This document shows, one piece after another, positions 6,042 to 60,286 of a stretch of 64,000 bases of DNA (its first letter is position 1; each line of letters starts with the position of its first letter). A model generated the notes under the pieces. The model had not been told where the DNA came from and did no database searches. It saw only the letters and a program-made list of their open reading frames with translations. The DNA lies in IMG/VR virus record IMGVR_UViG_3300045988_143605, positions 1 to 64,000 of that record; one strand, given 5' to 3'. This DNA is from a virus. The position numbers and the translations under genes are program-made.

Positions 6042-6266
6042 ATGGAAAAAGACCAAATAATTTACGATAAGCGTAAGGTCATGGGCGAGAACATCCGCAG
6101 GTTGCGCACCGCCCAGGGCTGGGAGCAGGAGCAGCTCGCACAGATTGTGGGCATCACCACTTCAAACGTCCGCAGCGTGGAAGCCGGCAAGTATGCCGTG
6201 AACATCGACGTGCTCAACAAGATTGCAGGAGCACTGGGCGCGGAACTGAGAATGATTGAAAAATAA
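6042..6266 (+). CDS. XRE-family helix-turn-helix regulator (74 aa)
   Basis: GENIRRLRTAQGWEQEQLAQIVGITTSNVRSVEAGKYAVNIDVLNKIAGALG matches the HTH_3/XRE pattern. Confidence 0.75.
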   Translation: MEKDQIIYDKRKVMGENIRRLRTAQGWEQEQLAQIVGITTSNVRSVEAGKYAVNIDVLNKIAGALGAELRMIEK

Positions 6267-6285: not shown

Positions 6286-6906
6286 ATGGCAAATGAAAGA
6301 TTTGTGTTGGCATCGGGCAAGGATCTGATGTGGACAGTGACGGACAACGAGAACGGCATCGCGATTGACTTCCGCGAGGGATTGTTTAATGAGAGCCAGG
6401 AGGTAAAGCTGATTGCTGAGTTCACTTCTGGCGACACTCCGAGAATGGCACGTATCATGCGCGAGATAGGCGACTGGATGGCTGAGAACCATGTGGAGGT
6501 GGCTCTCAGCGACTGGAAGACTCGACGCTCGGCTATCTGGAAACTAAGCAACGAAAAATATTGGCTGGCCCTGGCAGCAGCAACCAACAGCCTTCTGTTG
6601 TCGGACATGGACGCAGAACACGCGGCTTGTATGTTGTACGCCGAGGTATGCGATTGGGCAGAGTTCGAGAAGAGTGTAGACCTGACGAAAGCCGAGGAGG
6701 AGAATCTGAAGGGCGTATTGTCGGAGTTGACGGACGCAGAGGCCTGGGAGGTGTTCAAGATTTTGCACGTCTTCTGGAATTATCGCACGGAAGATATAGA
6801 CATGTTTCAATGGGCGATGGATGTGACCTGGTGGCCGGCATTGTTGCCCAACAAACTGAAGATGCAAGACGAGTGTGAGGAAGACGATATTATAGACGAG
6901 GGATAA
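6286..6906 (+). CDS. acidic hypothetical protein (206 aa)
   Basis: Long ORF with an acidic C-terminus, DECEEDDIIDEG. Confidence 0.6.
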   Translation: MANERFVLASGKDLMWTVTDNENGIAIDFREGLFNESQEVKLIAEFTSGDTPRMARIMREIGDWMAENHVEVALSDWKTRRSAIWKLSNEKYWLALAAATNSLLLSDMDAEHAACMLYAEVCDWAEFEKSVDLTKAEEENLKGVLSELTDAEAWEVFKILHVFWNYRTEDIDMFQWAMDVTWWPALLPNKLKMQDECEEDDIIDEG

Positions 6907-9025: not shown

Positions 9026-9045
9026 CCGCAGAATACGCAAAATGC

Positions 9046-9369
9046 GTAGATTTGTACGTTGATATTTTTATACGTTAATATTTCCGTACTTTTGTATTTC
9101 TATACTTTAGTAGATACGTTTGAACTTACATACTTATATATCTATTTACTTATTTATCTACTTACATAACTACTTATTTATCTATATATGTAGATAAGTA
9201 GGTAGATATGTAAATACGTAAATAAATATCAATTTTGCAGAAAAACATTTGGCGGAATGAATTATAATTCTTAAATTTGCAACAGAATGCAAAAGTATTG
9301 ACGCACTTTAGTATTTTCGTACTAACACACGTTCGTATGCAGGTACATTGGTAAGTAGATACGTTGATA
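9046..9369. repeat. centromere-like (parS/parC-type) AT-rich repeat field upstream of parA
   Basis: GTAGATACGTT occurs at 9110-9120 and 9355-9365, with a variant GTAGATTTGTACGTTGATA at 9046-9064. TACTTATTTATCTA occurs at 9147-9160 and 9171-9184, with an inverted TAGATAAGTA at 9191. There are multiple TACGT cores. Confidence 0.45.
9272..9279 (+). promoter_or_regulatory. -7 box TAaaTTTG with -33 TTTG (parA promoter)
   Basis: TTTG at 9248-9251 lies 20 nt upstream. The extended core AATTCTTAAATTTGCAAC is shared with the promoters at 15228 and 39218. Confidence 0.55.
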
Positions 9370-9414
9370 CGTATATATAAACGTAAGTAGTAACATTTTA
9401 AAACTTAAAAGAAT

Positions 9415-10281
9415 ATGGAAAGACTCAGAGAAGTGCTCGCCTTTGTTAATCACAAAGGTGGAGTAGGTAAGACAACAACAGTACAGAGCTTGGCAGCAGG
9501 TTTGCGCCTTTTTGGTAAGGGAAAATTTGGCACGGATGCCGACGGACACAAGCGTTTGCCTCGTGTGCTTATCATCGACATTGACCCGCAGGCATGTGCA
9601 TCGTTCCTCTACGGATGGAGCGAGACTCAGAACGTCGGCAAGCCTACCGTCTACGACGCATTGGTACAGCAGAGCAATCTGCCCGTCTATCAGGTACGCG
9701 ATGGCATTTACCTTGCTCCGGCAGCTTCACAACTTATATCCATCGAACCATTCTTGAATCAGAGAGCAATGCCTCGCAAGGCACTTTATAAGTTGCTCGC
9801 AAAACCACTGAACGAGTTGAGCGGTACGGAACTGGCAGATGAAGGCGTAACGACCGTTACGGAAGCCTTCGACTACGTGCTGATAGACTGTCCCCCTGCA
9901 ATGTCGTTGCTTACGTACAACGCCCTGACAGCGGCCACAAGCGTAGTATTGCCGGTGCAACTCGAAGTGCTGGCGACAAAAGGTATTGCCGAGATTATCA
10001 ATGCCATCGAGGAAACACGCGAAGATCTGAATCCGGAGCTTGACATCCGCGGCTTGCTGATGGTCATGAGCAATGACCAGACCAATGCCACCAAGGAGTT
10101 TAAGGCATACCTGGGAGGGAAGTACCAAGACTATATGTTCGACGCATATACCCGCCGTGACACTAAGATGGTGGAAGCCCAAGCGATGCGCAAGGACATT
10201 TTCGAGTATGCCAGATACTGTAGGGTAGGGCAGGACTACGAAAGGTTTACGAAAGAGATAATCAATAGTTTTAACGCATAA
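9415..10281 (+). CDS. parA: ParA/Soj-family partition ATPase
   Basis: Deviant Walker A NHKGGVGKTTT, and LIDCPPA and later ParA-like motifs. 288 aa. Confidence 0.85.
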   Translation: MERLREVLAFVNHKGGVGKTTTVQSLAAGLRLFGKGKFGTDADGHKRLPRVLIIDIDPQACASFLYGWSETQNVGKPTVYDALVQQSNLPVYQVRDGIYLAPAASQLISIEPFLNQRAMPRKALYKLLAKPLNELSGTELADEGVTTVTEAFDYVLIDCPPAMSLLTYNALTAATSVVLPVQLEVLATKGIAEIINAIEETREDLNPELDIRGLLMVMSNDQTNATKEFKAYLGGKYQDYMFDAYTRRDTKMVEAQAMRKDIFEYARYCRVGQDYERFTKEIINSFNA

Positions 10282-10292
10282 AAATATAGGGT

Positions 10293-10640
10293 ATGGCAAG
10301 AGAAATGACGAAGAAGACTAAGCGCTTCAGTCTTGAGGAGTCTGACGCTATCGAGGAGAACGAGCGCATATTGGAATCCGGTAGTCTGCAGCGCAAGGAA
10401 AACAGAGAAAAAAACAAGGAGGAGAATATGGAGCAAGTACCTGTGTCAGGCGAGGACAAGCCTATGACGAGCACGACTACTTCCGTTGCTCAGCCTGTAG
10501 CGAAAGCCACAAACGGCATAGTCGTTGATGTGCCCATCGACGATTATATGGCGCTGATACAGATGAAGATAATGACTCGTAGAACATTGAAAGACCTTGC
10601 CCTGCAAGCGATACATGAGTTTGTGGAGCGGAATAAGTAA
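10293..10640 (+). CDS. candidate centromere-binding partner of ParA (C-terminal ribbon-helix-helix-like)
   Basis: Lies immediately downstream of parA. Charged disordered N-terminus. The C-terminus VDVPIDDYMALIQMKIMTRRTLKDLALQAIHEFVERN resembles RHH (ParG/omega-type) folds. Confidence 0.5.
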   Translation: MAREMTKKTKRFSLEESDAIEENERILESGSLQRKENREKNKEENMEQVPVSGEDKPMTSTTTSVAQPVAKATNGIVVDVPIDDYMALIQMKIMTRRTLKDLALQAIHEFVERNK

Positions 10641-10656
10641 AACAAAATAACCTATT

Positions 10657-11220
10657 ATGAAAAAGATTATATCAATATTTTTTGCTCTTTGTGTGTGTTT
10701 GTCTATAAGCGCTCAGGAGCACATGAAGTTCATGGGAATACCCTTGAATGGATCGATTGATAACTTTACCTTGAAGCTGAAGACAAATGGTGTTACATAC
10801 GATGATGAGAGATCGAAAGCTGCGGGACCTGGTGGCAGAATCTTTAATGGTACGTTCATGGGAGAGAATGCTACATTTATGGTTTTTTATAATACCAAAA
10901 GTAAAATAGTGTATAGCGTGGCAGTAGAACTGCTTTATAGGGACGTTGAATCTACGCACATGCCTTTCGTGAACATTGCGAACCAGTTGCAGAATAAATA
11001 CCCTACTGCGACACGTGACGTAAGTAAAGATAACGATGGCGATGCTAATGGATTGGCTTTCAACATTCTTGGTAAAACTGGGACGGAGAGAATAGGTTTC
11101 ATTCTTCAAACCTTGAAAGTATCAGAATCCTATACAAATAGGGGTTGTTCCATTTACTTGATGTACACTGATATGGATAACTTCCAGAAGAGTGAGGTAA
11201 TCAACAACGAGGATTTATAA
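10657..11220 (+). CDS. secreted hypothetical protein (signal peptide)
   Basis: N-terminus MKKIISIFFALCVCLSISAQE is signal-peptide-like. Confidence 0.5.
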   Translation: MKKIISIFFALCVCLSISAQEHMKFMGIPLNGSIDNFTLKLKTNGVTYDDERSKAAGPGGRIFNGTFMGENATFMVFYNTKSKIVYSVAVELLYRDVESTHMPFVNIANQLQNKYPTATRDVSKDNDGDANGLAFNILGKTGTERIGFILQTLKVSESYTNRGCSIYLMYTDMDNFQKSEVINNEDL

Positions 11221-11226
11221 CGTGTA

Positions 11227-11562
11227 AGGTAAAAGAGCTTAGTATTATTTTATCTAATGGTAAAATAAGCAGGTAAAATCTTACTAAATCTTTTTACCTT
11301 AAATGTGAGTACTAAATCACTTTACCCGAGGGTAGGCGAGCAGGTAAAATCTTACTAAATCTTTTTACCTGTCTACTAAAAGTTTTTACCCTACTATTAT
11401 AATATAGATATAAAGGAAAAATATATTTTTTATTGTTTATATTATAGGCGTTTGAAGAAAACACTGTTTTCCAACGTTTTATGAATGTGGCAGGTAAAAG
11501 GATTTAGTAAATAGGTGAAAGTAAATAGTAAATAGGTAAAAAGATTTAGTAACTTTTTACCC
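11227..11562. repeat. iteron-type replication origin (direct and inverted iterons flanking an AT-rich stretch)
   Basis: A perfect 31-nt direct repeat GCAGGTAAAATCTTACTAAATCTTTTTACCT occurs at 11269-11299 and 11340-11370. Inverted copies GGTAAAAGGATTTAGTAA (11493-11510) and GGTAAAAAGATTTAGTAA (11535-11552) follow. The AT-rich block 11395-11460 lies between them, directly upstream of the Rep-like gene. Confidence 0.6.
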
Positions 11563-11580
11563 GAAAAGGAAGGAAACGAT

Positions 11581-12750
11581 ATGGAAAACGAAAAGTATTT
11601 ACCGCAAAAATGGATAAACACGCCGTTTGCCTTCACCAGGTTGAGCAAGAACCTATCGTTGTTGCAGCAATCGGTATTGGTGAAGGTCAGCGAGCAGTTG
11701 CAGCCATTCATAAAAGAGTTTTTTGGTTCCGACTTGGCTAAATCACGCAAGGTGCCAAAAGCTCTGTTTTCTGAGGCTGTAAAAAATTCGGGTGTTACTC
11801 AGATATATATATCCTATGCTGAATTAGGTGTTCCAGAAAACAACTTCTTTGCCGTGAAGCAGGCGATGAAAGAGGTGTTGGACGTGAAGGTAGAAGGCCC
11901 AAAGAAGAACGAGGATGGTACATGGGGTATGCACATGTATAATGTGTTTCTGAGTGGCGAAACGTCTATCAAGAATACGGGCGTCGTGTTTGGGCTTAAC
12001 CCACAAGTGATAGACCCCGAAAAGCATCTTTACGTGTTGGACTATGCGTTTAATATGACCGAAGGCTATGTGTCACACCCTGATAATATCGCACTGATTG
12101 GCGAGGTGGCGCGTATGCCGATGATGTATTATATCTTACGCGACGCAAGTGGAAACAACTGGAAAGAGCGCAAAATCCGGCTTACAGTCAGCAAGATAAA
12201 GAAGTATCTGGGCATGCTTGAGTTCAGTGGAACGGAACTGGTTAAGGAGGCATACCCGAAGTTCTCGCAGTTTAAGAAAAACGTGCTTGATAATAGTATT
12301 GCTGACATTAACCGACTGAAGCAGATGGGGCAGCTCGATGTGTGCGTGTCGTATGAACCTATCTACAACGGCAAACGCAAGATAGGCAATCCGGCATTTA
12401 TAGAGTTTACAATATATGACAATATCGGGCAAATGCAACAAGCGGTGCAACAAAGACAATCAGAACAACAGCTAACCCTCTTTGCTGATGCCGAGGAGTT
12501 GAAACCTAAACCTGGCGAAAAGGAGTGGCGACAGCTCGTATCTATGCTTGATGGCGAGATAGGAGAGCAACTACATAAGGTAGAGTTTGTTTCCTACGAC
12601 GGAAAGACAATACTCATGAAGGCGAGCCGAGCGCAATGCGAGAAGGTAGAGAGCTGCTTAACCAATGATGTTATAAAGCATGTAAAGAATTGCTCTGCTA
12701 AGGTGTTTGGCAAGATTGTAAATTGGGACTACTCCTTATCAGATAAATAA
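11581..12750 (+). CDS. candidate iteron-binding replication initiator (Rep-like)
   Basis: Position directly after the iterons. The N-terminal pattern (INTPFAFTRLSKNLSLLQQSVLVKV) is reminiscent of plasmid Rep_3-type initiators. Assignment is by context and weak motif only. Confidence 0.55.
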   Translation: MENEKYLPQKWINTPFAFTRLSKNLSLLQQSVLVKVSEQLQPFIKEFFGSDLAKSRKVPKALFSEAVKNSGVTQIYISYAELGVPENNFFAVKQAMKEVLDVKVEGPKKNEDGTWGMHMYNVFLSGETSIKNTGVVFGLNPQVIDPEKHLYVLDYAFNMTEGYVSHPDNIALIGEVARMPMMYYILRDASGNNWKERKIRLTVSKIKKYLGMLEFSGTELVKEAYPKFSQFKKNVLDNSIADINRLKQMGQLDVCVSYEPIYNGKRKIGNPAFIEFTIYDNIGQMQQAVQQRQSEQQLTLFADAEELKPKPGEKEWRQLVSMLDGEIGEQLHKVEFVSYDGKTILMKASRAQCEKVESCLTNDVIKHVKNCSAKVFGKIVNWDYSLSDK

Positions 12751-14446: not shown

Positions 14447-15133
14447 TCAGTCGTGTGCTGGATGGTCGGCGACCACGTAGCCATCGTTCATGTTCATGTT
14501 ATTGTAGCGTTTCGCTTCGTCGAGAATACGAGTAAGATTAGCTATTTGTTTCTGTTGCTCGGCAATTATTTCGAGCAGACGTATGCGCTCCTCGCTGTGA
14601 CGGTCGTCTGCCTCCATGCGTTTCGCTTCGAGTTTGAGCAAGGCTTTCATGTTCTGGTCGCTAACATTGCCTACTACTATCATATTCCTTCGCTCTGTGT
14701 CTGGCGCCTGGATGCAGATAGAGGAGACGGTTTCCGTATTTGTGAGCTTTGCTTCATCTGAATCAACAAGTCCTGGCACAACAGACGGAATCAGCGAAAC
14801 ATCCAGTGGGTCAAGAAGCGCACGACTTCCCGCCTTGCGTTCCGTAACATAGCCGCCATCAGGTGAGAATATATCTCCTTCGTTCGGTTGCACGTACATT
14901 GCAGCTTTTGTGGGGTCGTTGTCCTTGTCATAAAAGAAAGCTGAAATAGGCACTTGGAAGGTGTTGCAGAAGCGCAGAATGTTTGATACCGGCATCGGGC
15001 ATCTGCCTTGCTCCCATAAGCGCAGACTATTGTTTGACGTCGACCCTATAGCTTGCAGGATAGTGTTGATGTTTATCCTGCCGTTGGCTTTCATCCAACG
15101 GCTGAGAAAAGAGTAATTGTATTGGTACTTCAT
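14447..15133 (-). CDS. CI-like repressor (N-terminal XRE-type HTH, C-terminal coiled coil)
   Basis: Apart from the packaging block, this is the only minus-strand gene in the window, and it is divergent from 15262. HTH-like INTILQAIGSTSNNSLRLWEQGRCPMPVSNILRFCNTFQVPISAFF. Confidence 0.65.
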   Translation of the reverse strand: MKYQYNYSFLSRWMKANGRININTILQAIGSTSNNSLRLWEQGRCPMPVSNILRFCNTFQVPISAFFYDKDNDPTKAAMYVQPNEGDIFSPDGGYVTERKAGSRALLDPLDVSLIPSVVPGLVDSDEAKLTNTETVSSICIQAPDTERRNMIVVGNVSDQNMKALLKLEAKRMEADDRHSEERIRLLEIIAEQQKQIANLTRILDEAKRYNNMNMNDGYVVADHPAHD

Positions 15134-15768: not shown

Positions 15769-16449
15769 ATGATAGATATTACATTAGATTTAGAGACCTG
15801 TGCGCTCGCCCCTACAGCTGCTGTGATGAGTGTCGGAGCTGTATTATGGAAGCGTGACGGAGAAAAATCACCTTTCTATATCTATAGTGGCAGCGAAGCT
15901 GTTAAATATCCTACGTTCTCTGCTCACGTTGATTTGCGAGGAATGTTTGTGGATGGTTTTACTTTCGACAAGCAGACTGCTGATTGGTGGCAACATGAGA
16001 GCGAAGAAGCCAGAGCTTCCGTTCTCGAAAGTGATGACGATGCTACACTGTGTTCACCCATTCAGACTATCGTGCGCAACCTTTTTGAATGGATTAAAGA
16101 AATCAAGGACACATTGCACGACAAGGATGTATGCCTTTGGTCGCAAGGTTCAGATTTCGACATCGCCATCTTGCGGAATATATGTTATAAGTATCAGTTG
16201 GACATAAACGTCCTCGTACATTACACCTACTTCCGTGACCACCGCACATTTGTTTATGAGGCTGCTCAACTGTTATGCAATGCACGCGGCGTGCCTTATA
16301 GTCCTAAAATGGCATACGACATTGTGGAGGATTATAAGAACGTGGAGAGAGGTGCAGAGCATGACCCTGTGTTCGACTGTAAGCGCAGCATCTATTCAAC
16401 CTGGCAGATGATGAAGCAACTGAATCATCTGAAATATTTGGAACAATAA
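15769..16449 (+). CDS. DEDDh 3'-5' exonuclease (DnaQ-like fold)
   Basis: Exo I DLET, Exo II WSQGSDFD, Exo III HDPVFD (H-x4-D). Confidence 0.75.
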   Translation: MIDITLDLETCALAPTAAVMSVGAVLWKRDGEKSPFYIYSGSEAVKYPTFSAHVDLRGMFVDGFTFDKQTADWWQHESEEARASVLESDDDATLCSPIQTIVRNLFEWIKEIKDTLHDKDVCLWSQGSDFDIAILRNICYKYQLDINVLVHYTYFRDHRTFVYEAAQLLCNARGVPYSPKMAYDIVEDYKNVERGAEHDPVFDCKRSIYSTWQMMKQLNHLKYLEQ

Positions 16450-16981: not shown

Positions 16982-19900
16982 ATGTTCTTTCATCCTATCA
17001 TAAACCGCCTTGCGAACATCGACCTGCACCTTCTAATGAAGTCTGCCACGGAGCAGCGCATCGAAGGCCAGACAGCGTGTTTCTGCCCTATCTGCAAGAG
17101 GTGGCAGGATGCCGATGTCAAGCAGACACCCCACTTCATTATCTATGAAAATGAGCGAGGTGGTCTGTATTCGGGCGTTGGAGCCGATAACCGTCAGGCT
17201 GAGCAGGGTGCTGTAAAATGGAAATGCACCAAGACGGGAAAGACCGGTTACGGAGCGATAGAACTATGTGCGGCAATAATGAATCTTCCTATGCACGGGG
17301 CGAGTTTGCAACGTATCTGCCAACGACTTGTCAAGAATGTGTATGGCGACAGCGAAGAGGTGAAGTCAGCCTTTCCCGAAGTGTTTGCTAAGATGGACTA
17401 CCGCACCATTGCGCAACAGACCATTGAGACGTTTTCGTTCATGCCGAAGACCGATTTCTCGCCCCAAGAGTTGGCGGCTTTAGGTTGTGAGGTGACGCTT
17501 GACAAAGGATTGCCACGCTTCGGCTTTGGCAAGACCTTCACACCAGACTTGCTGAATAAGGACTTCCGCATCTATTCGTTGCTGAGTGTGACGCTGCCCG
17601 ACGTGATACGCGACGGTCAGCATGTGAGTGAGATTATCCACGGCACACCCTGGAATCCTCTTTTCGTATGCTTCGCCTCGCAAGAGATTGGACCGCAAAA
17701 CTCCTACGGCTGCTTCTTCCGTCCGGCGATGGCAGGGAGTGAACCGATAGTGTTCTCTACAGCCGAGGAGCACAGCGTGAGGAAGGTGAGCAAGTGGTTG
17801 ATGGGTGACAACGTATTTGTATATGCAATGGATCAGCGTAAAAGCGACAATACAGCCGTACATGCTGCCATCGCCAAGTACGACCCCGAAGAGAAATATA
17901 CCGAGACTAAGGAGGTATGGGAGGAGAATGAGACCAAGGACGGAGAACCGAGAGGTACGTTCAAAAGAGTGGACGCAAAAATTCCCACCGCCGAGATAAA
18001 AGCCCGCAACATCGTTTTTTGCCGTACACCCGAAGACGCATTGAGCGTGTATTATGCCATGCGTTCCCTGCGTCTTGACAAGACGGAAGACCAGCATTTC
18101 CAAAACTTCTGTTGGTATCATGTGGCGTTTTCTATTGGTCGCAGAAACTTCTGGTATATCGAGCGTGGCGAGTGGAAACGGGAGAATCTTGATTTCAGTG
18201 CCGTGCAATACCAGAAGATGAACCGCTTTGCCGAGCACGTCATCATCCTATACCCCAACGATATTGCATCACAGCGCGACTGTGGAGCTATATGCGCCAA
18301 GTTCAGCTCATTGTACTATGCAATGCTGCCCGAAGGTTTCCGCTCACGTTATTGCCGACGCTGGCAATGGCTATATGGCTGCTCTCCCCGAAGTGTGCGC
18401 GACTATCTGCTGACATACACCATGAACGCAGAAGAAAACTTCCAGTTCGACCATGACCTTCGCCTTCCACTCTACTCCCGATTGCGTGGAGCCAGGAATA
18501 CGGAACCTTTCGAGATAGAATATCCGCGTGACCCTCGAAGTGGAAAACCAAAGCCACCTACCTGCAAGGTATCGCCTACGCGATTGTGGCTTTTTATGAC
18601 CGCTCACGGATATTACCGCATGATAGACCCAGAGAGCACCGACCTCGTGGGGCAGTATATCCACCTGAACAAATGTTTTGTGGAGTATATCGATGCTAAG
18701 AGTATCATCCAGGCAGCAAAGACAATACTTTTGGAATATATAGAACAGGCATGGCGCCATAGCGACAACGAGCGACGTTTGATGTCCGACTGTGCCAATA
18801 TGGTGGACAAGACCTTCACGGAGAAGTCTGCCGGAGGTTTGCAGAGTATGGTGATTAACTTTGCCGACGCCTTCGATGCAAAGACGGAGTATTTTTACTT
18901 CAACAATGTGGCATTGAAGATAACGCCCGAGAGCATCCACACGGTGTCTTACGATGACATCAACTTTTTCATTCCATCGCTTGCCAAGAAGCCGTATGAC
19001 TTCACGATGCGGGTGTTCAAGATACCGTTCACCATCACTGAGAGACAGGAATACCGCGACCGACTGGAAGCGATAGACAAGAAGGAGAAGATGCAGAACC
19101 AGGACGGGTCGCCTGTGTACACCTACGACGAGATAAAACAAATGCGTGGCGACCTTATGGAATGGGCGCAGACATATCGTTGGGATGTCAACTGGCAAGG
19201 ACAGCAAGAAAAAGATCTTTGGCCTATCCTGCGTATCGTGCGCGGATTCTCAAATACCCTCTGGGAACGAGAAAAAGACGCACAGCGCAACAAAGAACAA
19301 CTCTCCGAGGACGAAAAAGCCGTAATGAACGCACATTTCGCCAATATGCTTTCGTGCATCGGACGTTTGTGCTTCCGTTCATGGGAAGGGATGAAGAACA
19401 TTGCTCCCTATCTTTTGGAAGACAATATTCCCGACGAGAAACAGGCGGCAGGTGGCTCGGGTAAATCGGTGTTAGTGAACACAGTGGTAGGCTCGGCTGT
19501 AAACGTGCTGCCAGTGGACATGAAGGATTTCATGATAGTCACCGATGCTAAATTTGCCCTCACCGATTTGCTTCTATATCCAGGCAAGTATCGTGTGGTG
19601 CATTGGGAGGACAAACAGAAGAGTTTCCCTATGAAGTACTTCTACAACAAGGTTACTCAAGGCACAAAGGTAGAGAAGAAGTTTGGCGACCCTGTAGGTC
19701 TGAAGATGGACGACTCGCCCATTCACGTTATCACGAGCAATAGCCCTTTGAGTGACGACGACCCCTCGACAATCGGCCGTTTTCCTTTGGTTAGTTTCTC
19801 TGACCGCTTTGCGCGAGAGAATCAGCAAAAACACCAGCCGGAACGATCACCGTCGGAACTGATGAAAAACTTCGACCCAACCCCGGAGAAGCTCACCGAC

Positions 19901-20641
19901 ACCGACCGCAACCAAGCCATTTATATCTGCGCCTTAGCAGTGCAGTTCCTGATGCGCTATCACACTTTTGCCATTGCACCTCAAGGCAATGTGCGTCGCC
20001 GTCAGATGGTACAGAAGCTCACCGAGAGCATCGTGCGCTACTTCGAGTGGTTCTTCTCTCGCAATGAGGTGTATGGTGTGCCGATATGCACGGATGATAT
20101 GTTCAATGAGTTTATGCGCGATTGGGCTGACGCTTCCGAGGGTAAGAGCAAGGAGTATAGTCGAGCTACATTCAAGAAGAAGATATACGACTATTGCGAT
20201 AATATGTCGATAACATGCAACCCGAAGCATCTCTTCGAGAATGAGAGCGACAAGCAGCGGAAATGCTTCAAGCTCCAGGCGTGGGTAACGCAGGAATACT
20301 TTACTGGTCGTGAATGGGAGAATGACAACACCATTGAGCCGAAGTTCATCCGCTATCTGCAAACCTCCAAGCATGTGTTCTTCTTCTTCCGTCCTGGCAA
20401 GGACGCAATGCCGAAGGATTACCGAGAGCTCAAACGCATAGCTAAGCAATATTCCGAGCAGCCTGACCCGCTGCCATTCCGAGACGATGACGGCAATATT
20501 GTACAGCTCACCGATGAAGAGAAAGAACGCTGGGAGAACAACAAGACACGCAAACAGGGTAGGCGAATGGCGGCACCTGCGGCAACGAATAACACAATGG
20601 CAAGTGTTTCGGATATAAAAGATGAAGACTTGCCGTTCTAA
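16982..20641 (+). CDS. DNA primase-helicase (Zn-finger primase N-terminus, SF3/D5-like P-loop C-terminus)
   Basis: CHC2-like Zn finger (CFCPICKRW ... WKCTKTG), possible Toprim acidic motifs, and Walker A AAGGSGKS. 1219 aa. Ends DEDLPF. Confidence 0.85.
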   Translation: MFFHPIINRLANIDLHLLMKSATEQRIEGQTACFCPICKRWQDADVKQTPHFIIYENERGGLYSGVGADNRQAEQGAVKWKCTKTGKTGYGAIELCAAIMNLPMHGASLQRICQRLVKNVYGDSEEVKSAFPEVFAKMDYRTIAQQTIETFSFMPKTDFSPQELAALGCEVTLDKGLPRFGFGKTFTPDLLNKDFRIYSLLSVTLPDVIRDGQHVSEIIHGTPWNPLFVCFASQEIGPQNSYGCFFRPAMAGSEPIVFSTAEEHSVRKVSKWLMGDNVFVYAMDQRKSDNTAVHAAIAKYDPEEKYTETKEVWEENETKDGEPRGTFKRVDAKIPTAEIKARNIVFCRTPEDALSVYYAMRSLRLDKTEDQHFQNFCWYHVAFSIGRRNFWYIERGEWKRENLDFSAVQYQKMNRFAEHVIILYPNDIASQRDCGAICAKFSSLYYAMLPEGFRSRYCRRWQWLYGCSPRSVRDYLLTYTMNAEENFQFDHDLRLPLYSRLRGARNTEPFEIEYPRDPRSGKPKPPTCKVSPTRLWLFMTAHGYYRMIDPESTDLVGQYIHLNKCFVEYIDAKSIIQAAKTILLEYIEQAWRHSDNERRLMSDCANMVDKTFTEKSAGGLQSMVINFADAFDAKTEYFYFNNVALKITPESIHTVSYDDINFFIPSLAKKPYDFTMRVFKIPFTITERQEYRDRLEAIDKKEKMQNQDGSPVYTYDEIKQMRGDLMEWAQTYRWDVNWQGQQEKDLWPILRIVRGFSNTLWEREKDAQRNKEQLSEDEKAVMNAHFANMLSCIGRLCFRSWEGMKNIAPYLLEDNIPDEKQAAGGSGKSVLVNTVVGSAVNVLPVDMKDFMIVTDAKFALTDLLLYPGKYRVVHWEDKQKSFPMKYFYNKVTQGTKVEKKFGDPVGLKMDDSPIHVITSNSPLSDDDPSTIGRFPLVSFSDRFARENQQKHQPERSPSELMKNFDPTPEKLTDTDRNQAIYICALAVQFLMRYHTFAIAPQGNVRRRQMVQKLTESIVRYFEWFFSRNEVYGVPICTDDMFNEFMRDWADASEGKSKEYSRATFKKKIYDYCDNMSITCNPKHLFENESDKQRKCFKLQAWVTQEYFTGREWENDNTIEPKFIRYLQTSKHVFFFFRPGKDAMPKDYRELKRIAKQYSEQPDPLPFRDDDGNIVQLTDEEKERWENNKTRKQGRRMAAPAATNNTMASVSDIKDEDLPF

Positions 20642-22132: not shown

Positions 22133-23317
22133 ATGAAACTTCAAACCCAATCATCCAAGGCCCTACACGCAGCCCTTAGCAAGTCGGCAAAGTGTATCGG
22201 CTCCAAGAACACCATAGTTATTCTCGATAATGTGTTGTTGACACGCAAGGGGGAGCAGTTCTTCCTAACTTCGTCAACCACCGAGGCGCAGCTTACCATT
22301 CCAGCACCGCTCACCATTTGTAGCGGCAAGTTCGACCGGGATATTGTACTGCCCATCAAGATGCTTAGTGCGCTGTTAAGCACTCTGCCCGATTGCGTGG
22401 TCACATTCGATATACCCGATAATGGTCAGTCATTTACCGTAGAATATTGCACCAGCCGTGAGGATAAGGTGAAGCCTGGCAAGGCGCAGATGTATTTCTT
22501 TCCTGGAGATGATTTTCCACAGATGGTGCAGCCGAAAGCCGAGCAGTCTACAATAGTCACGCTGCCCATGTCGCTGTTCCGCTCCGTTGTAGACACCACC
22601 GATAAGTTTGTCTTCCCCAATGAGCTTCGCCCTATACTCTCAAGTCTGTGTATCGACGTAGCCGAAGACCGTTCCGAAATAGTGTTTGTTGGCACCAACG
22701 GTCATACTCTTGTTAAGGTGAGACATAGTAATGACCCAGCAAAGGGAGGCAGCGACTTTTTCCGTAGTGGTACCCCCTGCAAGACGCTTATCCATCGCAA
22801 CTATTTCCGCACGCTTTCTGCCTTTGATGGCAGCGAGGACATAACCATTGAGAACTACGGTCATACCATCCGATTCACTTCGGGCGACACCGAACTGATA
22901 TGCAAGCATCTGGAGGGCAAATATCCCAACTATAACGCTGTCATTCCCAAGTCCAACCCATTCTATGTAGTTTTCGACAAAAAGGAGATGCTCGACATTC
23001 TGCGCCGTGTCAGTCTGTTCTCAAATAACGCAAGCAATCTCGTAGAGATGAAGAAAAGCGACATGTTCCTCACCGTGTCTGCCAGCGATGCCGACTTTGC
23101 AATATCGGGCGAAGATCAGGTGTGTATAGCCCGCGCCCAGTGTGACGATAACTTCCGCATCGGAATAAAGTCAACAATATTTCAAACTTGCATCAACTCT
23201 ATTCCATCGGACACGATACGTATGCAGTTGCTCGACGCTTCTCACGCAGTCGTTCTCACAGCCGACGAGCCTGCGCCAAAGGTATTATCGCTGTGCATGC
23301 CGATGCTGATTGATTAA
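22133..23317 (+). CDS. dnaN: DNA polymerase III beta sliding clamp homologue
   Basis: 394 aa. The N-terminus (...KNTIVILDNVLLTRKGEQFFLTSSTTEAQLTI...) follows the DnaN pattern. Confidence 0.8.
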   Translation: MKLQTQSSKALHAALSKSAKCIGSKNTIVILDNVLLTRKGEQFFLTSSTTEAQLTIPAPLTICSGKFDRDIVLPIKMLSALLSTLPDCVVTFDIPDNGQSFTVEYCTSREDKVKPGKAQMYFFPGDDFPQMVQPKAEQSTIVTLPMSLFRSVVDTTDKFVFPNELRPILSSLCIDVAEDRSEIVFVGTNGHTLVKVRHSNDPAKGGSDFFRSGTPCKTLIHRNYFRTLSAFDGSEDITIENYGHTIRFTSGDTELICKHLEGKYPNYNAVIPKSNPFYVVFDKKEMLDILRRVSLFSNNASNLVEMKKSDMFLTVSASDADFAISGEDQVCIARAQCDDNFRIGIKSTIFQTCINSIPSDTIRMQLLDASHAVVLTADEPAPKVLSLCMPMLID

Positions 23318-23978: not shown

Positions 23979-24290
23979 ATGAGAACAATCACACAATCCT
24001 ATACCGAGCTTCGCCGCTATATGGAAAAGTGGCAATGGAACGACCCTCGCACGGGGCAACGTGTCACTGGTTTCAATCCCCCGCAGACAGCACGCAACGT
24101 GGCACGTATGCCGTTCTACATACGTTTCCTTACCAAGACGGGACATGTAGACACCGGCACCTGCGTCTGTCTCTCGGTTGACACCATACGCCACCAGCGC
24201 AAGGTGCAGTTTGTAGAGAGTGGCGAGATAAGGGTTGTCAACGATATACTCGTGCTGGAAGTAGACGGTACGAGATTTATAACGCATTAA
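23979..24290 (+). CDS. hypothetical protein (103 aa)
   Basis: Tightly packed after the previous ORF. Confidence 0.5.
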   Translation: MRTITQSYTELRRYMEKWQWNDPRTGQRVTGFNPPQTARNVARMPFYIRFLTKTGHVDTGTCVCLSVDTIRHQRKVQFVESGEIRVVNDILVLEVDGTRFITH

Positions 24291-24373
24291 AGATTTGTTC
24301 TAAGTATATAAGTACATAGTTAATTAGACTATTCATTTTCGATTGTTAAGCGTACCAATGTTAATTCCAGATC

Positions 24374-24405
24374 AATTCTTCGGTTCGTGAGAATAGAAGA
24401 ATTTT
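24374..24405 (+). terminator. terminator hairpin with GTTCGTGAGAATA loop
   Basis: AATTCTTC pairs with GAAGAATT (8 bp) around the loop at 24382-24395, followed by TTTT. Confidence 0.55.
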
Positions 24406-24438
24406 GCTCATTGATTATTCACTTAAAATCCAAATATT

Positions 24439-24993
24439 ATGTGGAATCCATTTAAACGAGAAAATAAGCATTTGAAGGAATTGCAAGACGTTAGTCAGAT
24501 GACTGCAATCCTTGAAAAGTTAAGTCGCCGAGGTGTTATCTTCTGGCGCGAGAAAGATAAGATTCTTCTTATAGAGGAATATTTCGTTAGGTTGAAGTTG
24601 GCAGAGGGCCGTGAGGGATTTCTAAAATTTCTCAACCAGGTTGTCGCATGGCAAAACCTTAAACTCTTTGCCGAAGCCTATGAAGCACGCCGTATCAATG
24701 TCGAGGCAGCTGCTGTACGTAAGGCACGCAAGCAGTTTGCCAACTTGACCAAAGCCGATATCATGCGCATCCGTCAGGAGGCAAGAGAGAATATGCCGAT
24801 GTTGCCCATCGAGCAACTCGATTGCGTCAAAGAGTTCGATATCTTTGTGGTGCGTGCCAGTACACCGGCTGTTATGGAGGCTACGGAAGAGAATGGGCAG
24901 TTGCTCGCCCTTGGCCACTATGACGGAGAGAAGGTAGAGATGTCCATGTACGACGATATAAAGTATAACCTTCAGCGTAATGACGATGATTAA
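24439..24993 (+). CDS. hypothetical protein (184 aa)
   Basis: ORF in the same orientation as its neighbours. Confidence 0.5.
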   Translation: MWNPFKRENKHLKELQDVSQMTAILEKLSRRGVIFWREKDKILLIEEYFVRLKLAEGREGFLKFLNQVVAWQNLKLFAEAYEARRINVEAAAVRKARKQFANLTKADIMRIRQEARENMPMLPIEQLDCVKEFDIFVVRASTPAVMEATEENGQLLALGHYDGEKVEMSMYDDIKYNLQRNDDD

Positions 24994-25212
24994 AGTTGCC
25001 TTCAAGGACGGAACATACGTCATTTGCCCAGAATGCAATGAAAAGATATACATTATTGAATGAGTATAAATAGCATCAAACATAAAACATGAAAATATTC
25101 GATTGCAACAAACAATGCAAATACTGCACGGCGATATTCTGCGAGGAAATGGAAAAAGGAAAGTATATCAAAACTGAACAGACAAACAAAGCAAAATAAA
25201 AACAATAAGACT

Positions 25213-25597
25213 ATGACAAAAGAAGAAACTGAAAAGCGCATTGAGGTGATGTAGGATTACGTGGACGGGAAGGAAATCCAAGTAATATGTAGGGATATGA
25301 AAACATGGGAAGATGTGGTCGACCCAAACTGGGAATGGGGACATTTAGACTATCGTGTTAAACCAGCCCTAAGTTCCGACCATTTGATAATGTCGTGGAG
25401 TGCATCAACGAAATGAAAAAGCACATACCATTTGGTTGTGTAAAAGATGATTTCTTTTTTCCCCCATTGAAAAAGTTAGTTATGTATATGATGAATTTAT
25501 AAGATGTCTTGGAGTGTGGACTGCTCCAGATGAAATGTTTGAAAAATTCACATTCCTTGATGGTTCGCCATTTGGAATAAAAGAAGAGGAGGAATAA
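25213..25597 (+). pseudogene. disrupted small ORF (in-frame TAG plus two frameshifts)
   Basis: MTKEETEKRIEVM-TAG(25252)-DYVDGKEIQV...DYRVKPA. Protein-like sequence then continues in a second frame (RPFDNVVECINEMKKHIPFGCVKDD) and a third (IEKVSYVYDEFIRCLGVWTAPDEMFEKFTFLDGSPFGIKEEEE). The shifts fall at CCC 25367-25369 and T6 25455-25460. Confidence 0.5.
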
Positions 25598-25599
25598 CT

Positions 25600-26397
25600 A
25601 TGAATAAAAAAGCACAAGACGCGGTAAAGAAATACAATGATGCGTGCAATCTGCTCGCATCCATGGTCAATGAACAGCTCTTCGACGGTTGTCGCAAGTG
25701 GTATTGGATAGGCGATGAAGTAGGTGGAGTGTGTGATTTCGAGGAAACCGACGTGCTGAATCCGGAAGACATGGTTCGCATCATCGAGAATGGTATGTCC
25801 TACGATGAATACGCCGAGTGGCGCGATGCCAACCTCGACAACAACCGTTACATCAATCTCAAGTCGTGGCTCATGGGGCTGCGGCATGATATGCTGAAGG
25901 AAGAAGTTAAGGAGAATATGAAGCCAATCCTTGATTGTTGTTGTGGTTCTCGTATGTTTTATTTTGACAAGAAAGACCCGAATGTGTTGTTTGCAGACAT
26001 TAGAGAAGTGCATGAAGAACTTTGCGATGGCAGATTACTCGATGTGAATCCTGATGTCTTTGCCGACTGTACTAATATGCCGTTCACTGATGGGTCCTTT
26101 CGTGTGGTTGTCTTCGACCCTCCTCATTTAAAGAATGTTGGATTAAATTCTTGGCTCTGTAAGAAATATGGAATTTTACCAGATAATTGGCAAGAGTTTA
26201 TTAACGACTCTATACACGAGTGTATGAGAGTGTTGGCTGATTACGGTGTCTTGATATTCAAGTGGAACGAACAACAGATTAAGGTTAGTGAAATTCTTGG
26301 CGCAATAAAAGATTATAAACCTATTTTCGGACATCGCACAACATCAAAAAACGCCACTATATGGATGGCTTTTATGAAACATCCAAAATATAAATAA
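25600..26397 (+). CDS. SAM-dependent methyltransferase (DPPH motif)
   Basis: Motif I-like ILDCCCGSRMF and motif IV-like VVVFDPPH. DNA versus RNA target is unresolved. Confidence 0.6.
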   Translation: MNKKAQDAVKKYNDACNLLASMVNEQLFDGCRKWYWIGDEVGGVCDFEETDVLNPEDMVRIIENGMSYDEYAEWRDANLDNNRYINLKSWLMGLRHDMLKEEVKENMKPILDCCCGSRMFYFDKKDPNVLFADIREVHEELCDGRLLDVNPDVFADCTNMPFTDGSFRVVVFDPPHLKNVGLNSWLCKKYGILPDNWQEFINDSIHECMRVLADYGVLIFKWNEQQIKVSEILGAIKDYKPIFGHRTTSKNATIWMAFMKHPKYK

Positions 26398-26493
26398 ACT
26401 ATTAAATGTAGCTTCTTTTGAATAAATTATTGGATAATACAATTTGTTTCAAATTCATTGGTATTTTTCCTTGGCGAAAGAAATGATTTGAAA

Positions 26494-26532: not shown

Positions 26533-28527
26533 TTATCTTCCACTCGGCAGTACAAACCAACCGCCACCGCCACGGAAGAACTTGCAACCTAAGTACAGCG
26601 TATCGAAGGCATCCGTGAAGTCGGTACGTTGCTGTAGGGGTAGTGTGTCCTCGCTCTCGGGCTTCTTCTCCTGGCTCTTGTCTTTGTGAAATCCCTTGTA
26701 CGAAATCTGCACCTCGCACAGCTGCATGGCGATGATAAGGTCGGGATTGTTCACCTGGTTGATGCGAATGGCGGGGTAGGAGAGGTGAGCCAAGCCGTCG
26801 TTGATGATCTTGTGCTTTACCTCGTGCTTTTCTGGAGCACCCATATCAATGGCCGTCACGTTCCAGCCTCGCTTCTCCAACTCTGCAATCACGGTCATAT
26901 AGAATCGCTCGTCCGACGAAGCATACGAGGCGCCCTGCTTTGCCGTGGAATCATAGAAATACGTCAAGTCGCGGTTGATGGCCCGCTTCGGTGCGTAATA
27001 GTCGGAGAAATCGGCTATCACTTCACGCAGCTTGCGCTCGTTCTTCACATAGAAGCTCTTGATGACGTTCAGACATTCCATGCCGTCGCGCTCATACATC
27101 TGTCCGACCACCAACGTATTGATGTTGGCATTGTAATCCAAGGCTATATACAGAGGAAGAGAGTTGATGCAGTCGGAATCCATGCGTGAGTCGTTGCGCT
27201 CGCCCAATTCCTTGAAGTCGGGTTGATAGCTCTCGCTTGTAACTTTCCTTCCACCGATGATGCCCGACACCTTTTGCGTGGAAAATTTGGCAGTCGATAA
27301 AGGGTCTATTTCATCTGGGATATATCCGTGAACATGGTCGATGTCGAGGTTGGAGTAAAAACCGTCATTACTTTTCTGTATCTTTACATTCAGAATTGAC
27401 ACGGCGAAGGTATATGGCGGAAGATCTCGCTTCATCTGACGGATATAGTCTTCACCCAAAATATCCACATTGTCGAGCGATGACGCACGACGCACGCAGA
27501 AAGCCACACGGCGCAGCTCACGCAAATAGTCTTCAGAGAATTTCTTTGACCGCTGGAACATCTGCATCTCAAAATCCTCTTCCGGCGTGATAAGATACTC
27601 GTAATCGTAAATCAGTTCGGCATCGTCCTGCGGAATGAGTTTATAGTTGACAGCCATCTCCACCATACCCTTAGTGACGTGTTGGCCATGGTTGGGCATT
27701 ATCTTGAATTGTCCCTCATGCTTCATCATCTTCAGAGCCACGGCACGGATCATCGTGCGCAACTCCTTCGGCACCACACGCACCGAGTGGTTGGTCTTCT
27801 TGGCGTTATACAGCAGGTCGTTGTAGCGTATCACCTTGTTGGCGTAATCCTCCAACTGCTCCTGCACCCATCGGTAGGTATTGCCCTTGAATGGCCCCGT
27901 CTCAACGGTCATGTCCAACTTCTCCTCCTCCTTCTCCAACCACGAGCCTTTGGCAGTGAGCGAGGCATCCGAGAGGAAGCGTGTACTTTTATACATCGGG
28001 TTGTGGTCGGAGAAGTTGATGTCGCCCAACGGATGTGTCTGGCCTGAAAGAGCTGGCATCAACTCGTCCGTTACTTTCTTATAAGGAAAGAATCTCGCCT
28101 CGTCGCCTACCATGGCCGAGAACGTGTAAGAGTTGGCAGAGGCGGTCTGTGAGAGCGAGATAAGAACCCATCCGGCGCCATTGGCCAACCAGATGTAGTT
28201 GTCGTAGTTCTTAGGTTTGAAGATACTCTCGCGAGCATGTTTCGGCGGTCGTCCCCAACCGAAGTGAATGCCCTGCGTAAAACCGAACATACGTTCCATG
28301 GCAGCCATCGTACTCGGTATGGTCTTGCCGAAGCCCTGCTGACGCGACACAGCCACCCATGCGCCGAGCATACCAGGCATGGAGTTGCTTGCCGTCCAGA
28401 CGTAAGGAGCCACCAAACCATCGGTCTTACCCACACGGCGGGCAGCAATCACTCGCTCGTCTTTGGCTCCCATATATAGCGACTGCTGCTGAAACTTCGT
28501 TAAGTATATATTATGTGCTTGCTGCAT
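26533..28527 (-). CDS. terL: terminase large subunit
   Basis: Walker A AARRVGKTDG, Walker B-like AMVGDEA, and a C-terminal nuclease-like LYIALDYNANINT. 664 aa. Confidence 0.85.
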   Translation of the reverse strand: MQQAHNIYLTKFQQQSLYMGAKDERVIAARRVGKTDGLVAPYVWTASNSMPGMLGAWVAVSRQQGFGKTIPSTMAAMERMFGFTQGIHFGWGRPPKHARESIFKPKNYDNYIWLANGAGWVLISLSQTASANSYTFSAMVGDEARFFPYKKVTDELMPALSGQTHPLGDINFSDHNPMYKSTRFLSDASLTAKGSWLEKEEEKLDMTVETGPFKGNTYRWVQEQLEDYANKVIRYNDLLYNAKKTNHSVRVVPKELRTMIRAVALKMMKHEGQFKIMPNHGQHVTKGMVEMAVNYKLIPQDDAELIYDYEYLITPEEDFEMQMFQRSKKFSEDYLRELRRVAFCVRRASSLDNVDILGEDYIRQMKRDLPPYTFAVSILNVKIQKSNDGFYSNLDIDHVHGYIPDEIDPLSTAKFSTQKVSGIIGGRKVTSESYQPDFKELGERNDSRMDSDCINSLPLYIALDYNANINTLVVGQMYERDGMECLNVIKSFYVKNERKLREVIADFSDYYAPKRAINRDLTYFYDSTAKQGASYASSDERFYMTVIAELEKRGWNVTAIDMGAPEKHEVKHKIINDGLAHLSYPAIRINQVNNPDLIIAMQLCEVQISYKGFHKDKSQEKKPESEDTLPLQQRTDFTDAFDTLYLGCKFFRGGGGWFVLPSGR

Positions 28528-43233: not shown

Positions 43234-43307
43234 AGCGGAGTGGCAGCAGTTGGTAGCTCACTTGGCTCATAACCAAGAGGCCGAAGGTTCGAGTCCTTCC
43301 TCCGCAA
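43234..43307 (+). tRNA. tRNA-Met (anticodon CAT; could also be a lysidine-type Ile2)
   Basis: Anticodon arm CTTGG-CTCATAA-CCAAG, T-arm GAAGG-TTCGAGT-CCTTC, and acceptor stem GCGGAG/CTCCGC with an A1-A72 mismatch. The D-stem is weak (3 bp AGC/GCT). No encoded CCA. Confidence 0.75.
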
Positions 43308-43364
43308 CTCAGTCGGTAAAAAGATTGATTTTTCAGGATTACAACACAAACACTAAATTTACTA

Positions 43365-59550: not shown

Positions 59551-59567
59551 TATAAACAATAACAATT

Positions 59568-60249: not shown

Positions 60250-60286
60250 CATCATAAAACATTCAACAAAACTCATATTCAACACT

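Follow-up and report, generated by a model that had tools for sequence, protein, structure and literature searches.

Does a tailed phage of gut Bacteroidota that carries the maintenance genes of a plasmid also live as one? The question is raised by a 64-kb stretch of IMG/VR record IMGVR_UViG_3300045988_143605 (hereafter the window), in which positions 9030-12750 hold what a preliminary description, made from the sequence alone, took to be a plasmid-type partition and replication module within a phage genome. The region comprises four plus-strand genes and two repeat-rich intergenic stretches, arranged in the order repeat array with promoter, parA, the gene of a 115-aa partner protein, the gene of a secreted protein, iterons with an AT-rich stretch, and rep. 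The module is well supported by the evidence given below; the lifestyle that we read from it is plausible and unproven. We put at about 70% the probability that the phage resides in its host as a plasmid prophage, kept by a type Ib-like system of ParA, a ribbon-helix-helix (RHH) partner and a centromere, and replicated from a Rep-iteron origin under copy-number control.

Partition operon and replication origin

Upstream of parA lies a repeat field (9040-9392) with an AT content of 74.6%, compared with 53% for the window. What would be the outer part of a centromere/operator field is a cluster of short boxes of the GTAGAT and TACGT types (9040-9125; repeat family D1) with inverted repeats. A centromere-like array follows at 9127-9230, in which 26 TAnn tetramers, or 13 units of 8 bp, adjoin one another around a dyad at ~9186; autocorrelation reaches 0.57-0.63 at lags 4, 8, 12 and their successors, as against ~0.2 at other lags. 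A motif scan places a putative par promoter of the Bacteroidota type on the plus strand at 9248-9279, with a -33 element TTTG at 9248 and a -7 element TAAATTTG at 9272-9279. Repeat clusters flank this promoter on both sides, a second cluster of the same boxes (9336-9392) being situated between the promoter and the parA start codon, where it is likely to be an operator for autoregulation. A scan of the module for sigma-70 consensus promoters and for terminators stayed at or below shuffle level, which for sigma-70 is expected because the host belongs to the Bacteroidota.

The parA gene (9415-10281, plus strand) encodes a protein of 288 aa with the deviant Walker A motif KGGVGKT at residues 13-19, matching Pfam AAA_31 (9e-37) and PHROG 164, 'ParA-like partition protein' (5e-45). 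The NCBIfam models of RepA/SopA partition ATPases (~390 positions) align with this protein only from about position 105, so the phage ParA lacks the N-terminal DNA-binding domain of type Ia. The partner gene (10293-10640, plus strand, 115 aa) starts 11 nt past the parA stop codon. In an alignment of 37 homologs the first 40 residues of the partner are conserved and largely basic in character, a linker rich in Ser, Thr and Pro varies, and the C-terminal domain (~45 residues) is again conserved. In the AlphaFold2 model, residues 75-113 (predicted local distance difference test score, pLDDT, of 83-87) form an extended segment followed by two helices, the topology of an RHH monomer. The best profile match of the C-terminal domain in the Protein Data Bank (PDB), across the whole domain and with a marginal E-value of 0.27, is ORF56 of plasmid pRN1, an RHH copy-control protein. 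A PDB search with the single partner sequence yielded nothing useful, Foldseek with the partner model yielded nothing, and a Pfam scan of the C-terminal domain produced noise only. The domain is thus likely, not proven, to be of the RHH fold. Its predicted DNA-reading strand differs among homologs (GIVVDVP, GIVVNVP and GITIYVP).

A short ParA devoid of the N-terminal DNA-binding domain, a 104-bp array upstream of parA that together with two flanking clusters surrounds the putative promoter, and a small partner gene directly downstream, whose product has a predicted RHH fold, together make the partition system type Ib-like. The AT-rich repeat field and the KGGVGKT ATPase of the preliminary description are therefore both in place, the former with a phased array that can be added to it; of its RHH-like partner the gene stands, the fold being a predicted topology. 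In such a system ParA-ATP would coat the nucleoid, and partner dimers would bind the phased tetramer boxes upstream of parA through their RHH C-terminus, the array serving at once as centromere and as operator of the par promoter. The basic N-terminal tail of the partner would stimulate the ParA ATPase, and copies would be pulled apart at cell division.

This arrangement resembles ParF-ParG-parH of plasmid TP228 in its short Walker-type ParA and in a small partner whose N-terminal tail is flexible and whose C-terminal domain is of the RHH type (predicted in the phage). According to PMC3130281, parH consists of ~100 bp of degenerate tetramer boxes with AT-rich 4-bp spacers, located upstream and acting also as operator; in these respects, too, the ~100-bp tetramer-box field upstream of the phage operon, a putative centromere and operator, is similar. 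The systems differ in the sequence of the boxes, and the phage partner has no significant similarity to any solved RHH protein.

The second repeat-rich stretch contains the putative origin. With up to two mismatches, the iteron pattern TACTAAANNNTTTTACC has seven matches in 64 kb, all within 11228-11551, where chance would give 0.32; a count of seven never occurred in 100 shuffles. A degenerate eighth copy is located at 11514. The left cluster (11228-11390) consists of an inverted copy at 11228 and direct 17-bp copies at 11282, 11310, 11353 and 11374, and extra GGTAAAA half-sites make 27-bp units with palindromic (inverted) ends. In iteron plasmids, sites with such half-sites and inverted ends are bound by initiator dimers for autorepression. 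A 60-bp stretch with 87% AT (11387-11446) is a candidate DNA-unwinding element. Beyond it the right cluster (11493-11561) has three copies, 21 bp apart and in the opposite orientation, and ends 20 bp 5' of the rep ATG; its position makes it a likely autorepression site for rep. The iteron spacings are 21, 21, 21, 28 and 43 bp; since spacings of 21 and 43 bp predominate, most copies lie on one helix face.

The rep gene (11581-12750, plus strand) encodes 389 aa and appears to specify an initiator of the Rep_3/pi/RepE type with an extra C-terminal domain. Its second winged-helix domain is recognised by Pfam PF21205 Rep3_C (25.4 bits against a cut-off of 21.1 bits, E 1.7e-5). The best PDB match of the single sequence is the pi protein of R6K (E 0.12), and a profile made from phage and plasmid relatives of Rep finds the pi protein (2nra) at E 0.0053, with equivalent positions in the second winged-helix domain. 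The iteron/AT-rich origin and the Rep-like initiator proposed earlier are thus both found. Of the features of the Rep_3 class, the C-terminal winged helix, phased direct repeats beside an AT-rich region and rep, and an iteron sequence that co-varies with Rep among relatives (see below) are present. Rep would bind the iterons, and the cassette may be capable of autonomous replication. Rep monomers would load on the 17-bp iterons and melt the AT-rich stretch between the opposed clusters, whereupon a helicase and a replisome would be recruited, either those of the host or the phage's own clamp, ligase, primase-like protein and exonuclease. The iteron cluster adjoining the rep start codon would repress rep, and pairing of iteron arrays between copies would limit copy number.

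In comparison with pi (R6K), RepE (F) and RepA (pPS10), the phage Rep has the second winged-helix domain in common, and its origin shares with those of Rep_3 initiators the direct iterons phased at 21-22 bp beside an AT-rich region, abutting the rep promoter region. Unlike in those systems, the N-terminal Rep_3 domain of Pfam is undetected in the phage protein and an extra C-terminal domain of ~80 aa is present, opposed iteron clusters flank the AT-rich stretch, and the sole nearby DnaA box (at 11172) has a mismatch. This DnaA-box-like 9-mer, TTATCCATA (11172-11180), is situated ~50 bp before the first iteron, within the end of the preceding gene, and could occur by chance.

That preceding gene (10657-11220, plus strand), inserted between the partner gene and the origin, encodes 187 aa with an N-terminal signal peptide and has no family match in Pfam, PHROG or NCBIfam. 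The gene stands outside the maintenance machinery; absent from about half of the relatives, it is a variable 'moron'-type gene at a fixed insertion point.

Circular map, phage genes and the search for a recombinase

The window is 64 kb of a circular map of ~86.3 kb, not the complete phage genome that the preliminary description had assumed. Several ENA contigs are 99.7-100% identical to the window. One of them, k119_29815, is 77,168 bp long and comes from a different sample. It covers window positions 58822-64000, then 22,256 bp not contained in the window, then window positions 1-49733, and so joins the window's end to its start. Another, Scaffold_159 (86,356 bp), starts at window position 24115, runs past the window's end and, by coordinate mapping (its other end was not retrieved), comes back to about 24114, where the window is continuous. 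The contigs that join the end of the window to its start contain no host flank. The circularity that was to be looked for in the assemblies is therefore present, and in contigs from a different sample.

The remaining 22 kb were recovered from near-identical contigs and one 97%-identical relative, ~2.9 kb of the exact genome being represented by this relative only. Encoded in the 22 kb are a DUF6712 protein, large proteins of 941, 1287 and 927 aa, a DUF5675 protein, a protein with a virion structural PHROG match and a reverse transcriptase-like protein; for the 1287-aa protein no relatives were found in IMG/VR. The 2.9-kb stretch of the relative encodes proteins of 178, 155 (DUF5675), 139, 103 and 293 aa, the last with a virion structural PHROG match. 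The gene called for the last open reading frame (ORF) of the window begins at an ATG later than the TTG start.

Three assemblies break at one point of the map (24115-24169), inside a 103-aa gene, and the break takes the form of a 55-nt k-mer overlap. From the identical breakpoints, these assemblies appear to come from one sample. We considered a physical genome end at this point (a cos site or a telomere) and rejected it, the break being a 55-nt assembly overlap that both the window and the contig from another sample read through. Nearby, at 24300-26400, gene content varies among relatives, which have either one gene of 265 aa or three of 130, 101 and 159 aa. The place is a local hypervariable or strain-mixed spot and not a genome end.

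The phage identity of the map rests on several genes, the virion structural PHROG match mentioned above among them. A tape measure protein (33581-38407, plus strand) matches PHROG 25337 (9e-23) and, weakly, Pfam TMP_3 and PhageMin_Tail. A head-maturation protease of the S49 type (43365-45047, plus strand) matches PHROG 53 (3e-19) and, above the cut-off, Pfam Peptidase_S49; its nearest GenBank relatives are proteases of Flavobacterium phages, at 28% identity. A holin is found as a precomputed Pfam match. Homologs are labelled 'Caudoviricetes' in NR, and the contigs are catalogued in IMG/VR. More than 25 independent assemblies have virion and lysis genes on one contig with the genes for ParA, the partner and Rep. 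The tape measure and protease genes had been named earlier and are verified here. The terminase named with them has a weak counterpart only, a 664-aa candidate (26533-28527, minus strand; E 9e-4) for which a single-sequence PDB search gave nothing useful. Portal and capsid were not recognised in the scans of the window, and the earlier calls could not be reproduced. The 308-aa ORF at 47484-48410 (plus strand), which may have been taken at first for the capsid gene, encodes a full-length LysR-type regulator (HTH_1 3e-21, LysR_substrate 1e-26) within the head and tail gene block, an unusual cargo in a phage.

No family match to an integrase, resolvase, large serine recombinase, DDE transposase or protelomerase was found in the window or in the 22-kb remainder. 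Essentially all ORFs of at least 100 aa were scanned with Pfam, PHROG and NCBIfam, and precomputed Pfam tables were used for the genes of matching contigs. These scans bear out the remark that the window contains no tyrosine or serine recombinase, and extend it to the recovered 22 kb, where an integrase had been foreseen as the finding that would overturn the phage-plasmid reading. A Mu-like transposable phage was likewise considered and rejected, there being no DDE transposase; a lone match at E 0.0014, to a low-complexity 138-aa ORF, is below the cut-off and spurious. The longest contigs of the close Rep clusters measure 83.5-92.5 kb; among the clusters listed in three protein searches none exceeds ~107 kb, and no contig with host flanks was seen among them. 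No integration machinery was thus recognised in the gene set of the ~86-kb reconstruction, in which many ORFs have no family and ~2.9 kb are those of the 97%-identical relative. A circular replicon without an integrase fits a free replicon, and a strictly lytic phage would give the same picture.

A candidate immunity repressor of 228 aa (14447-15133, minus strand) has a putative XRE-like helix-turn-helix (HTH) N-terminus and a coiled coil, and is divergent from the next operon. In the 128-bp spacer beside its gene, -7 boxes stand back to back at 15228 (plus strand) and 15239 (minus strand). Relatives of 30-82% identity occur at a fixed position with conserved flanking genes. The best match of the N-terminal profile is the XRE-type controller C.BclI, in register and with a marginal E-value of 0.044; a single-sequence PDB search gave nothing useful. 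What had been called a CI-like repressor is therefore recognisable, marginally, as an XRE-type HTH protein, and its features fit, without proving, an immunity repressor. With no integrase, the prophage would most likely be a low-copy circular plasmid, as in P1, under this divergent XRE-type repressor.

A further XRE-type HTH protein of 74 aa is encoded at 6042-6266 (plus strand), with NCBIfam matches to Y4mF/HipB-type antitoxins (5e-16) and RstR-type repressors (3e-8). It is followed by a 206-aa ORF without family (6286-6906, plus strand). The pair could be a Cro-like regulator or a toxin-antitoxin plasmid addiction module.

Relatives and Segatella plasmids

Among the viral contigs of IMG/VR, 25 (18-106 kb) carry a relative of Rep, as do four contigs of metagenome-assembled genomes (MAGs); two of these four are labelled Prevotella or Prevotellaceae. 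The block of ligase, ParA, partner, (187-aa gene), Rep, three small genes and the reverse-strand 228-aa gene is kept in all 25 IMG/VR relatives, and in every MAG contig long enough to show it.

Within this conserved order the putative sites change together with the proteins. Where Rep is 48-54% identical, the iteron reads GGTCA(T/C)AATGTTTTTTACC instead of TACTAAATCTTTTTACC; in relatives with a 54%-identical Rep, TACTAAATCTTTTTACC is replaced by GGTCATAATGTTTTTTACC and the layout is kept. Relatives with altered iterons retain the opposed clusters, the AT-rich centre and spacings of ~21, 29 and 43 bp. The array upstream of parA follows the partner variant in the same way: TAnn boxes accompany a close variant, ACAA/ATAA/AGCA boxes a 44%-identical partner and GTACGTAG-type boxes a 27%-identical partner, all with the 4/8-bp phasing preserved. 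That site and protein change together is strong indirect evidence that the repeats are binding sites. Variants of ParA, partner, Rep and the 228-aa repressor candidate also reassort independently among genomes; for example, one relative (L040) has a ParA of 92% and a Rep of 54% identity, and another (L026) a ParA of 97% and a Rep of 86%. Such modular reassortment is expected under selection to escape incompatibility and immunity.

Searches with the module DNA (3.8 kb) found nothing among GenBank phages or PLSDB plasmids, and the Rep protein had no match in GenBank phages. In PLSDB, tblastn with Rep gave three records, all from Segatella (formerly Prevotella), at 26-28% identity over 69-93% of the query; the matching proteins are annotated as 'RepB family plasmid replication initiator' or 'replication initiation protein'. 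In a multiple alignment, Rep and the Segatella initiators are 25-28% identical over the whole length and have the motifs WINTPF and YPKFSQFKK in common. The best four plasmid matches to the phage ParA are also all from Segatella. The closest annotated relatives of both phage proteins thus belong to plasmids of cultured Segatella copri and S. hominis. These matches, together with the MAG labels, confirm the Bacteroidota host proposed in the preliminary description and sharpen it to Prevotella/Segatella.

Two of the three Rep-matching records are large extrachromosomal elements of the S. copri complex (Blanco-Miguez 2023, PMC10635906). The remaining record, plasmid 'unnamed2' of S. copri DSM 18205 (59 kb), has the order ParA, 99-aa protein, iterons, initiator. 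Between the ParA proteins of this plasmid and of the phage identity is 39% (E 8e-71), and the plasmid origin has seven 22-bp iterons starting with GGTAAA before rep and two inverted copies beyond an AT-rich spacer. In the S. hominis element, 8-bp-phased arrays occupy a long intergenic stretch adjoining parA. The Segatella plasmids (NZ_CP085934, NZ_CP137558 and NZ_CP137560) therefore resemble the phage in ParA (35-40% identity) and Rep (25-28%), in gene order, in the GGTAAA half-site, in the opposed iteron clusters around an AT-rich spacer and in the 8-bp-phased arrays upstream of parA. They differ from it in their small partner proteins, for which sequence similarity is undetectable; these replicons, unlike the phage, carry metabolic genes and, according to PMC10635906, rRNA genes. 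The 99-aa protein of unnamed2 (L055:5297-5596) has no BLAST similarity to the phage partner but ends, like it, in a strand-helix-turn-helix pattern, TSVATYLNKEELLLLKMKCLSDDIPQENLLYNILMDYLKK, which suggests that the Segatella replicons share the architecture of the phage partner.

Because homology of Rep and ParA, gene order and origin layout are all shared, the cassette can be considered a maintenance module of the host lineage's own plasmids; the low identities indicate membership in the same family and not a recent transfer. No homolog of the phage head protease was found on any PLSDB plasmid, so no isolate carrying the element as a plasmid was identified.

Lifestyle and its alternatives

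The absence of integrase matches, the circular map, the contig sizes and the plasmid-type module agree with the phage-plasmid lifestyle that had been proposed, and a plasmid prophage is the best reading of them. Several points weigh against it. Both the plasmid state in cells and the production of virions are deduced from sequence. The repressor call is marginal (E 0.044) and temperate behaviour is not established; neither an antirepressor nor an SOS-responsive domain was found. The RHH assignment of the partner, although likely, comes from a predicted topology and a match at E 0.27, with nothing from Foldseek. In Rep, the N-terminal Rep_3 domain of Pfam was not detected at E<0.01, and the AlphaFold2 model, made from an input alignment of 85-100% identical sequences, is poor (pLDDT 54, and below 50 over most of residues 1-180); Foldseek with this model returned meaningless matches. 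Many large ORFs (200-1300 aa) have no family and might, though this is improbable, include a very divergent recombinase, and ~2.9 kb of the exact genome are known from the 97%-identical relative only. Finally, the phage carries several replisome parts, and Rep could act on its iterons in lytic replication, in the manner of lambda O at ori-lambda.

The last point leads to a virulent or carrier-state phage, in which Rep and the iterons would be a vegetative origin, ParA and its partner would only position or retain genomes, and no plasmid prophage would exist. The phage's own clamp, NAD ligase, primase-like protein, DnaQ-like exonuclease and dUTPase speak for such a phage, as do the marginal repressor, the lack of any known lysogen and the absence of the head protease gene from cultured plasmids in PLSDB; closed circular assemblies are also frequent for 'Flandersviridae', which are possibly lytic (PMC8008677). 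A full par operon with centromere/operator and an iteron origin of the autorepression type are, however, devices of low-copy inheritance, with homologous counterparts in Segatella replicons that are inherited stably. The par, rep and repressor-like specificities, moreover, diversify and reassort as incompatibility and immunity predict, unlike what lytic replication would lead one to expect. We consider this explanation, the strongest of the alternatives, rather unlikely. The map may alternatively belong to a Segatella plasmid bearing a defective prophage or a tailocin-like gene set that makes no infectious virions, with which the host-plasmid type of the cassette, the unrecognised portal and major capsid and the weak terminase (E 9e-4) would agree. 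Yet the head protease, the tape measure, the holin, a reverse transcriptase of the type found in diversity-generating retroelements and large fibre-like proteins are kept throughout the family; genomes from very many samples stay within a narrow 86-92 kb, and the contigs are catalogued in IMG/VR, with homologs named Caudoviricetes by NR. As the head protease has no GenBank relative closer than 28% identity, a very divergent phage would account for the genes that were not recognised, and a defective element seems to us improbable.

An ordinary integrating prophage would need a recombinase that is too divergent to recognise or that lies in the part not seen directly, the circles being excised or packaged forms. 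The ORFs without family and the 2.9 kb known through the relative leave some room for it; the proteins of that stretch in the relative, however, have no recombinase match, and the catalytic domains of tyrosine and serine recombinases are normally easy to detect, with none in the Pfam and PHROG scans or the precomputed Pfam tables. Among the protein clusters listed, no host flanks and no contigs above ~107 kb were seen, and a par operon would be of little use to an integrating phage, all of which makes such a prophage very unlikely. Hardly credible, in turn, is a linear plasmid prophage of the N15 type with hairpin telomeres. It would account for the three assemblies that break at 24115-24169, but this break is a k-mer overlap inside a gene, in assemblies that appear to share one sample, and is read through by the window and by the contig from another sample; no protelomerase match was found, and contigs from different samples span every junction of the circular map.

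Of the earlier comparison with P1 and N15, the P1 logic of an iteron Rep plus par operon consequently stands, whereas the N15 half does not hold. The phage resembles P1 as a tailed phage without integrative lysogeny, with an iteron initiator beside its own iterons, an adjacent par operon and what would be the maintenance logic of a low-copy plasmid under a repressor (the plasmid state of the present phage being deduced). It differs in having no sequence similarity in DNA and Rep searches of GenBank phages, and in its Bacteroidota host. Partition in P1 is of type Ia, with a large HTH ParB and a downstream parS, and that of N15 is of type Ia as well; the phage system is type Ib-like, its ParA being short, its partner of 115 aa predicted to be of the RHH type, and its putative centromere placed upstream. 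By analogy, the plasmid prophage would be functionally the P1 solution, built from Bacteroidota plasmid parts.

Episomal replication has been proposed for gut phages before. Benler 2021 suggested RepA-mediated episomal replication for an integrase-less branch of 'Quimbyviridae', and did not find partition genes in 'Flandersviridae' (PMC8008677). The 'Quimbyviridae' branch is like the present phage in its RepA-like winged-helix protein and its lack of an integrase; Prevotella is one of the hosts of 'Quimbyviridae' (PMC8008677), and 'Quimbyviridae' also have a reverse transcriptase, an RtcB tRNA ligase and methyltransferases. The present phage differs in having no DnaB helicase beside Rep, in its size (86 kb against a median of 75 kb), and in its full par operon and defined iteron origin, neither of which is reported in PMC8008677. 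CrAssphage, reported as a linear phage-plasmid (PMC10983915; Schmidtke 2025), is likewise a phage of gut Bacteroidota; episomal persistence is proposed or reported for it and for the 'Quimbyviridae' branch. The reported linear form of crAssphage contrasts with the circular map of the present phage. These likenesses to 'Quimbyviridae' and crAssphage are of gene content and proposed lifestyle and not of marker-gene phylogeny. In a 2025 survey of gut phage-plasmids most candidates grouped with elements of Firmicutes and Actinobacteria (10.1101/2025.02.07.636470). A literature description of this phage lineage or of its cassette was not found.

A broader proposal stands at about even odds: that these phages form a widespread, undescribed lineage of circular, P1-like Prevotella/Segatella phage-plasmids (~86-107 kb), present in very many gut metagenomes, which use the replicon family of their hosts' plasmids and large extrachromosomal elements and whose par, rep and immunity modules are swapped into incompatibility and immunity groups. 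Prevotella and Segatella dominate many non-Western gut microbiomes, and almost no cultured phages and few genetic tools exist for them. If the reading is true, such phages could compete or interfere with resident Segatella replicons. Through a common replicon family, and perhaps through incompatibility, phage biology would then be tied to the large extrachromosomal elements of the S. copri complex, and the linear crAssphage would gain a circular, P1-like counterpart in Bacteroidota. Were a common phage family to live as a plasmid, the division of gut phages into virulent and temperate would change, since tools keyed to integrases misclassify phages of this kind. For genetics in a poorly tractable genus the locus would offer a host-adapted mini-replicon: the 3.7-kb cassette is a candidate backbone for a stable Segatella shuttle vector, 11220-12750 a smaller candidate for a minimal replicon, and the pairs of iteron and Rep, like those of centromere and partner, offer in their natural variants a ready set of orthogonal specificities.

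Other genes of the map deserve mention. Between the DnaQ-like 3'-5' exonuclease (15769-16449) and the sliding clamp (22133-23317), a 1219-aa ORF (16982-20641, plus strand) has no match in Pfam, NCBIfam or a single-sequence PDB search and matches one PHROG of unknown function; it is a candidate for an unrecognised DNA polymerase or helicase-primase. Some 5-7 kb upstream of window position 1, in the recovered part of the map, a 620-aa protein (L051:19656-21518, L003:1954-3816) matches PHROG 1423, 'Reverse transcriptase' (4.6e-32). It adjoins the putative fibre proteins (927-1287 aa), some relatives of which have a carbohydrate-binding domain (PF02018); the reverse transcriptase and fibre genes may constitute a diversity-generating retroelement, as in 'Quimbyviridae'. 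An RtcB RNA ligase (53256-54431, plus strand), a tRNA-Met (43234-43308, plus strand), two DNA methyltransferases (2136-2819 and 62028-62798, both plus strand) and a PAPS-reductase-family protein near the terminase candidate (29453-30619, minus strand) look like a set for counter-defence and DNA modification.

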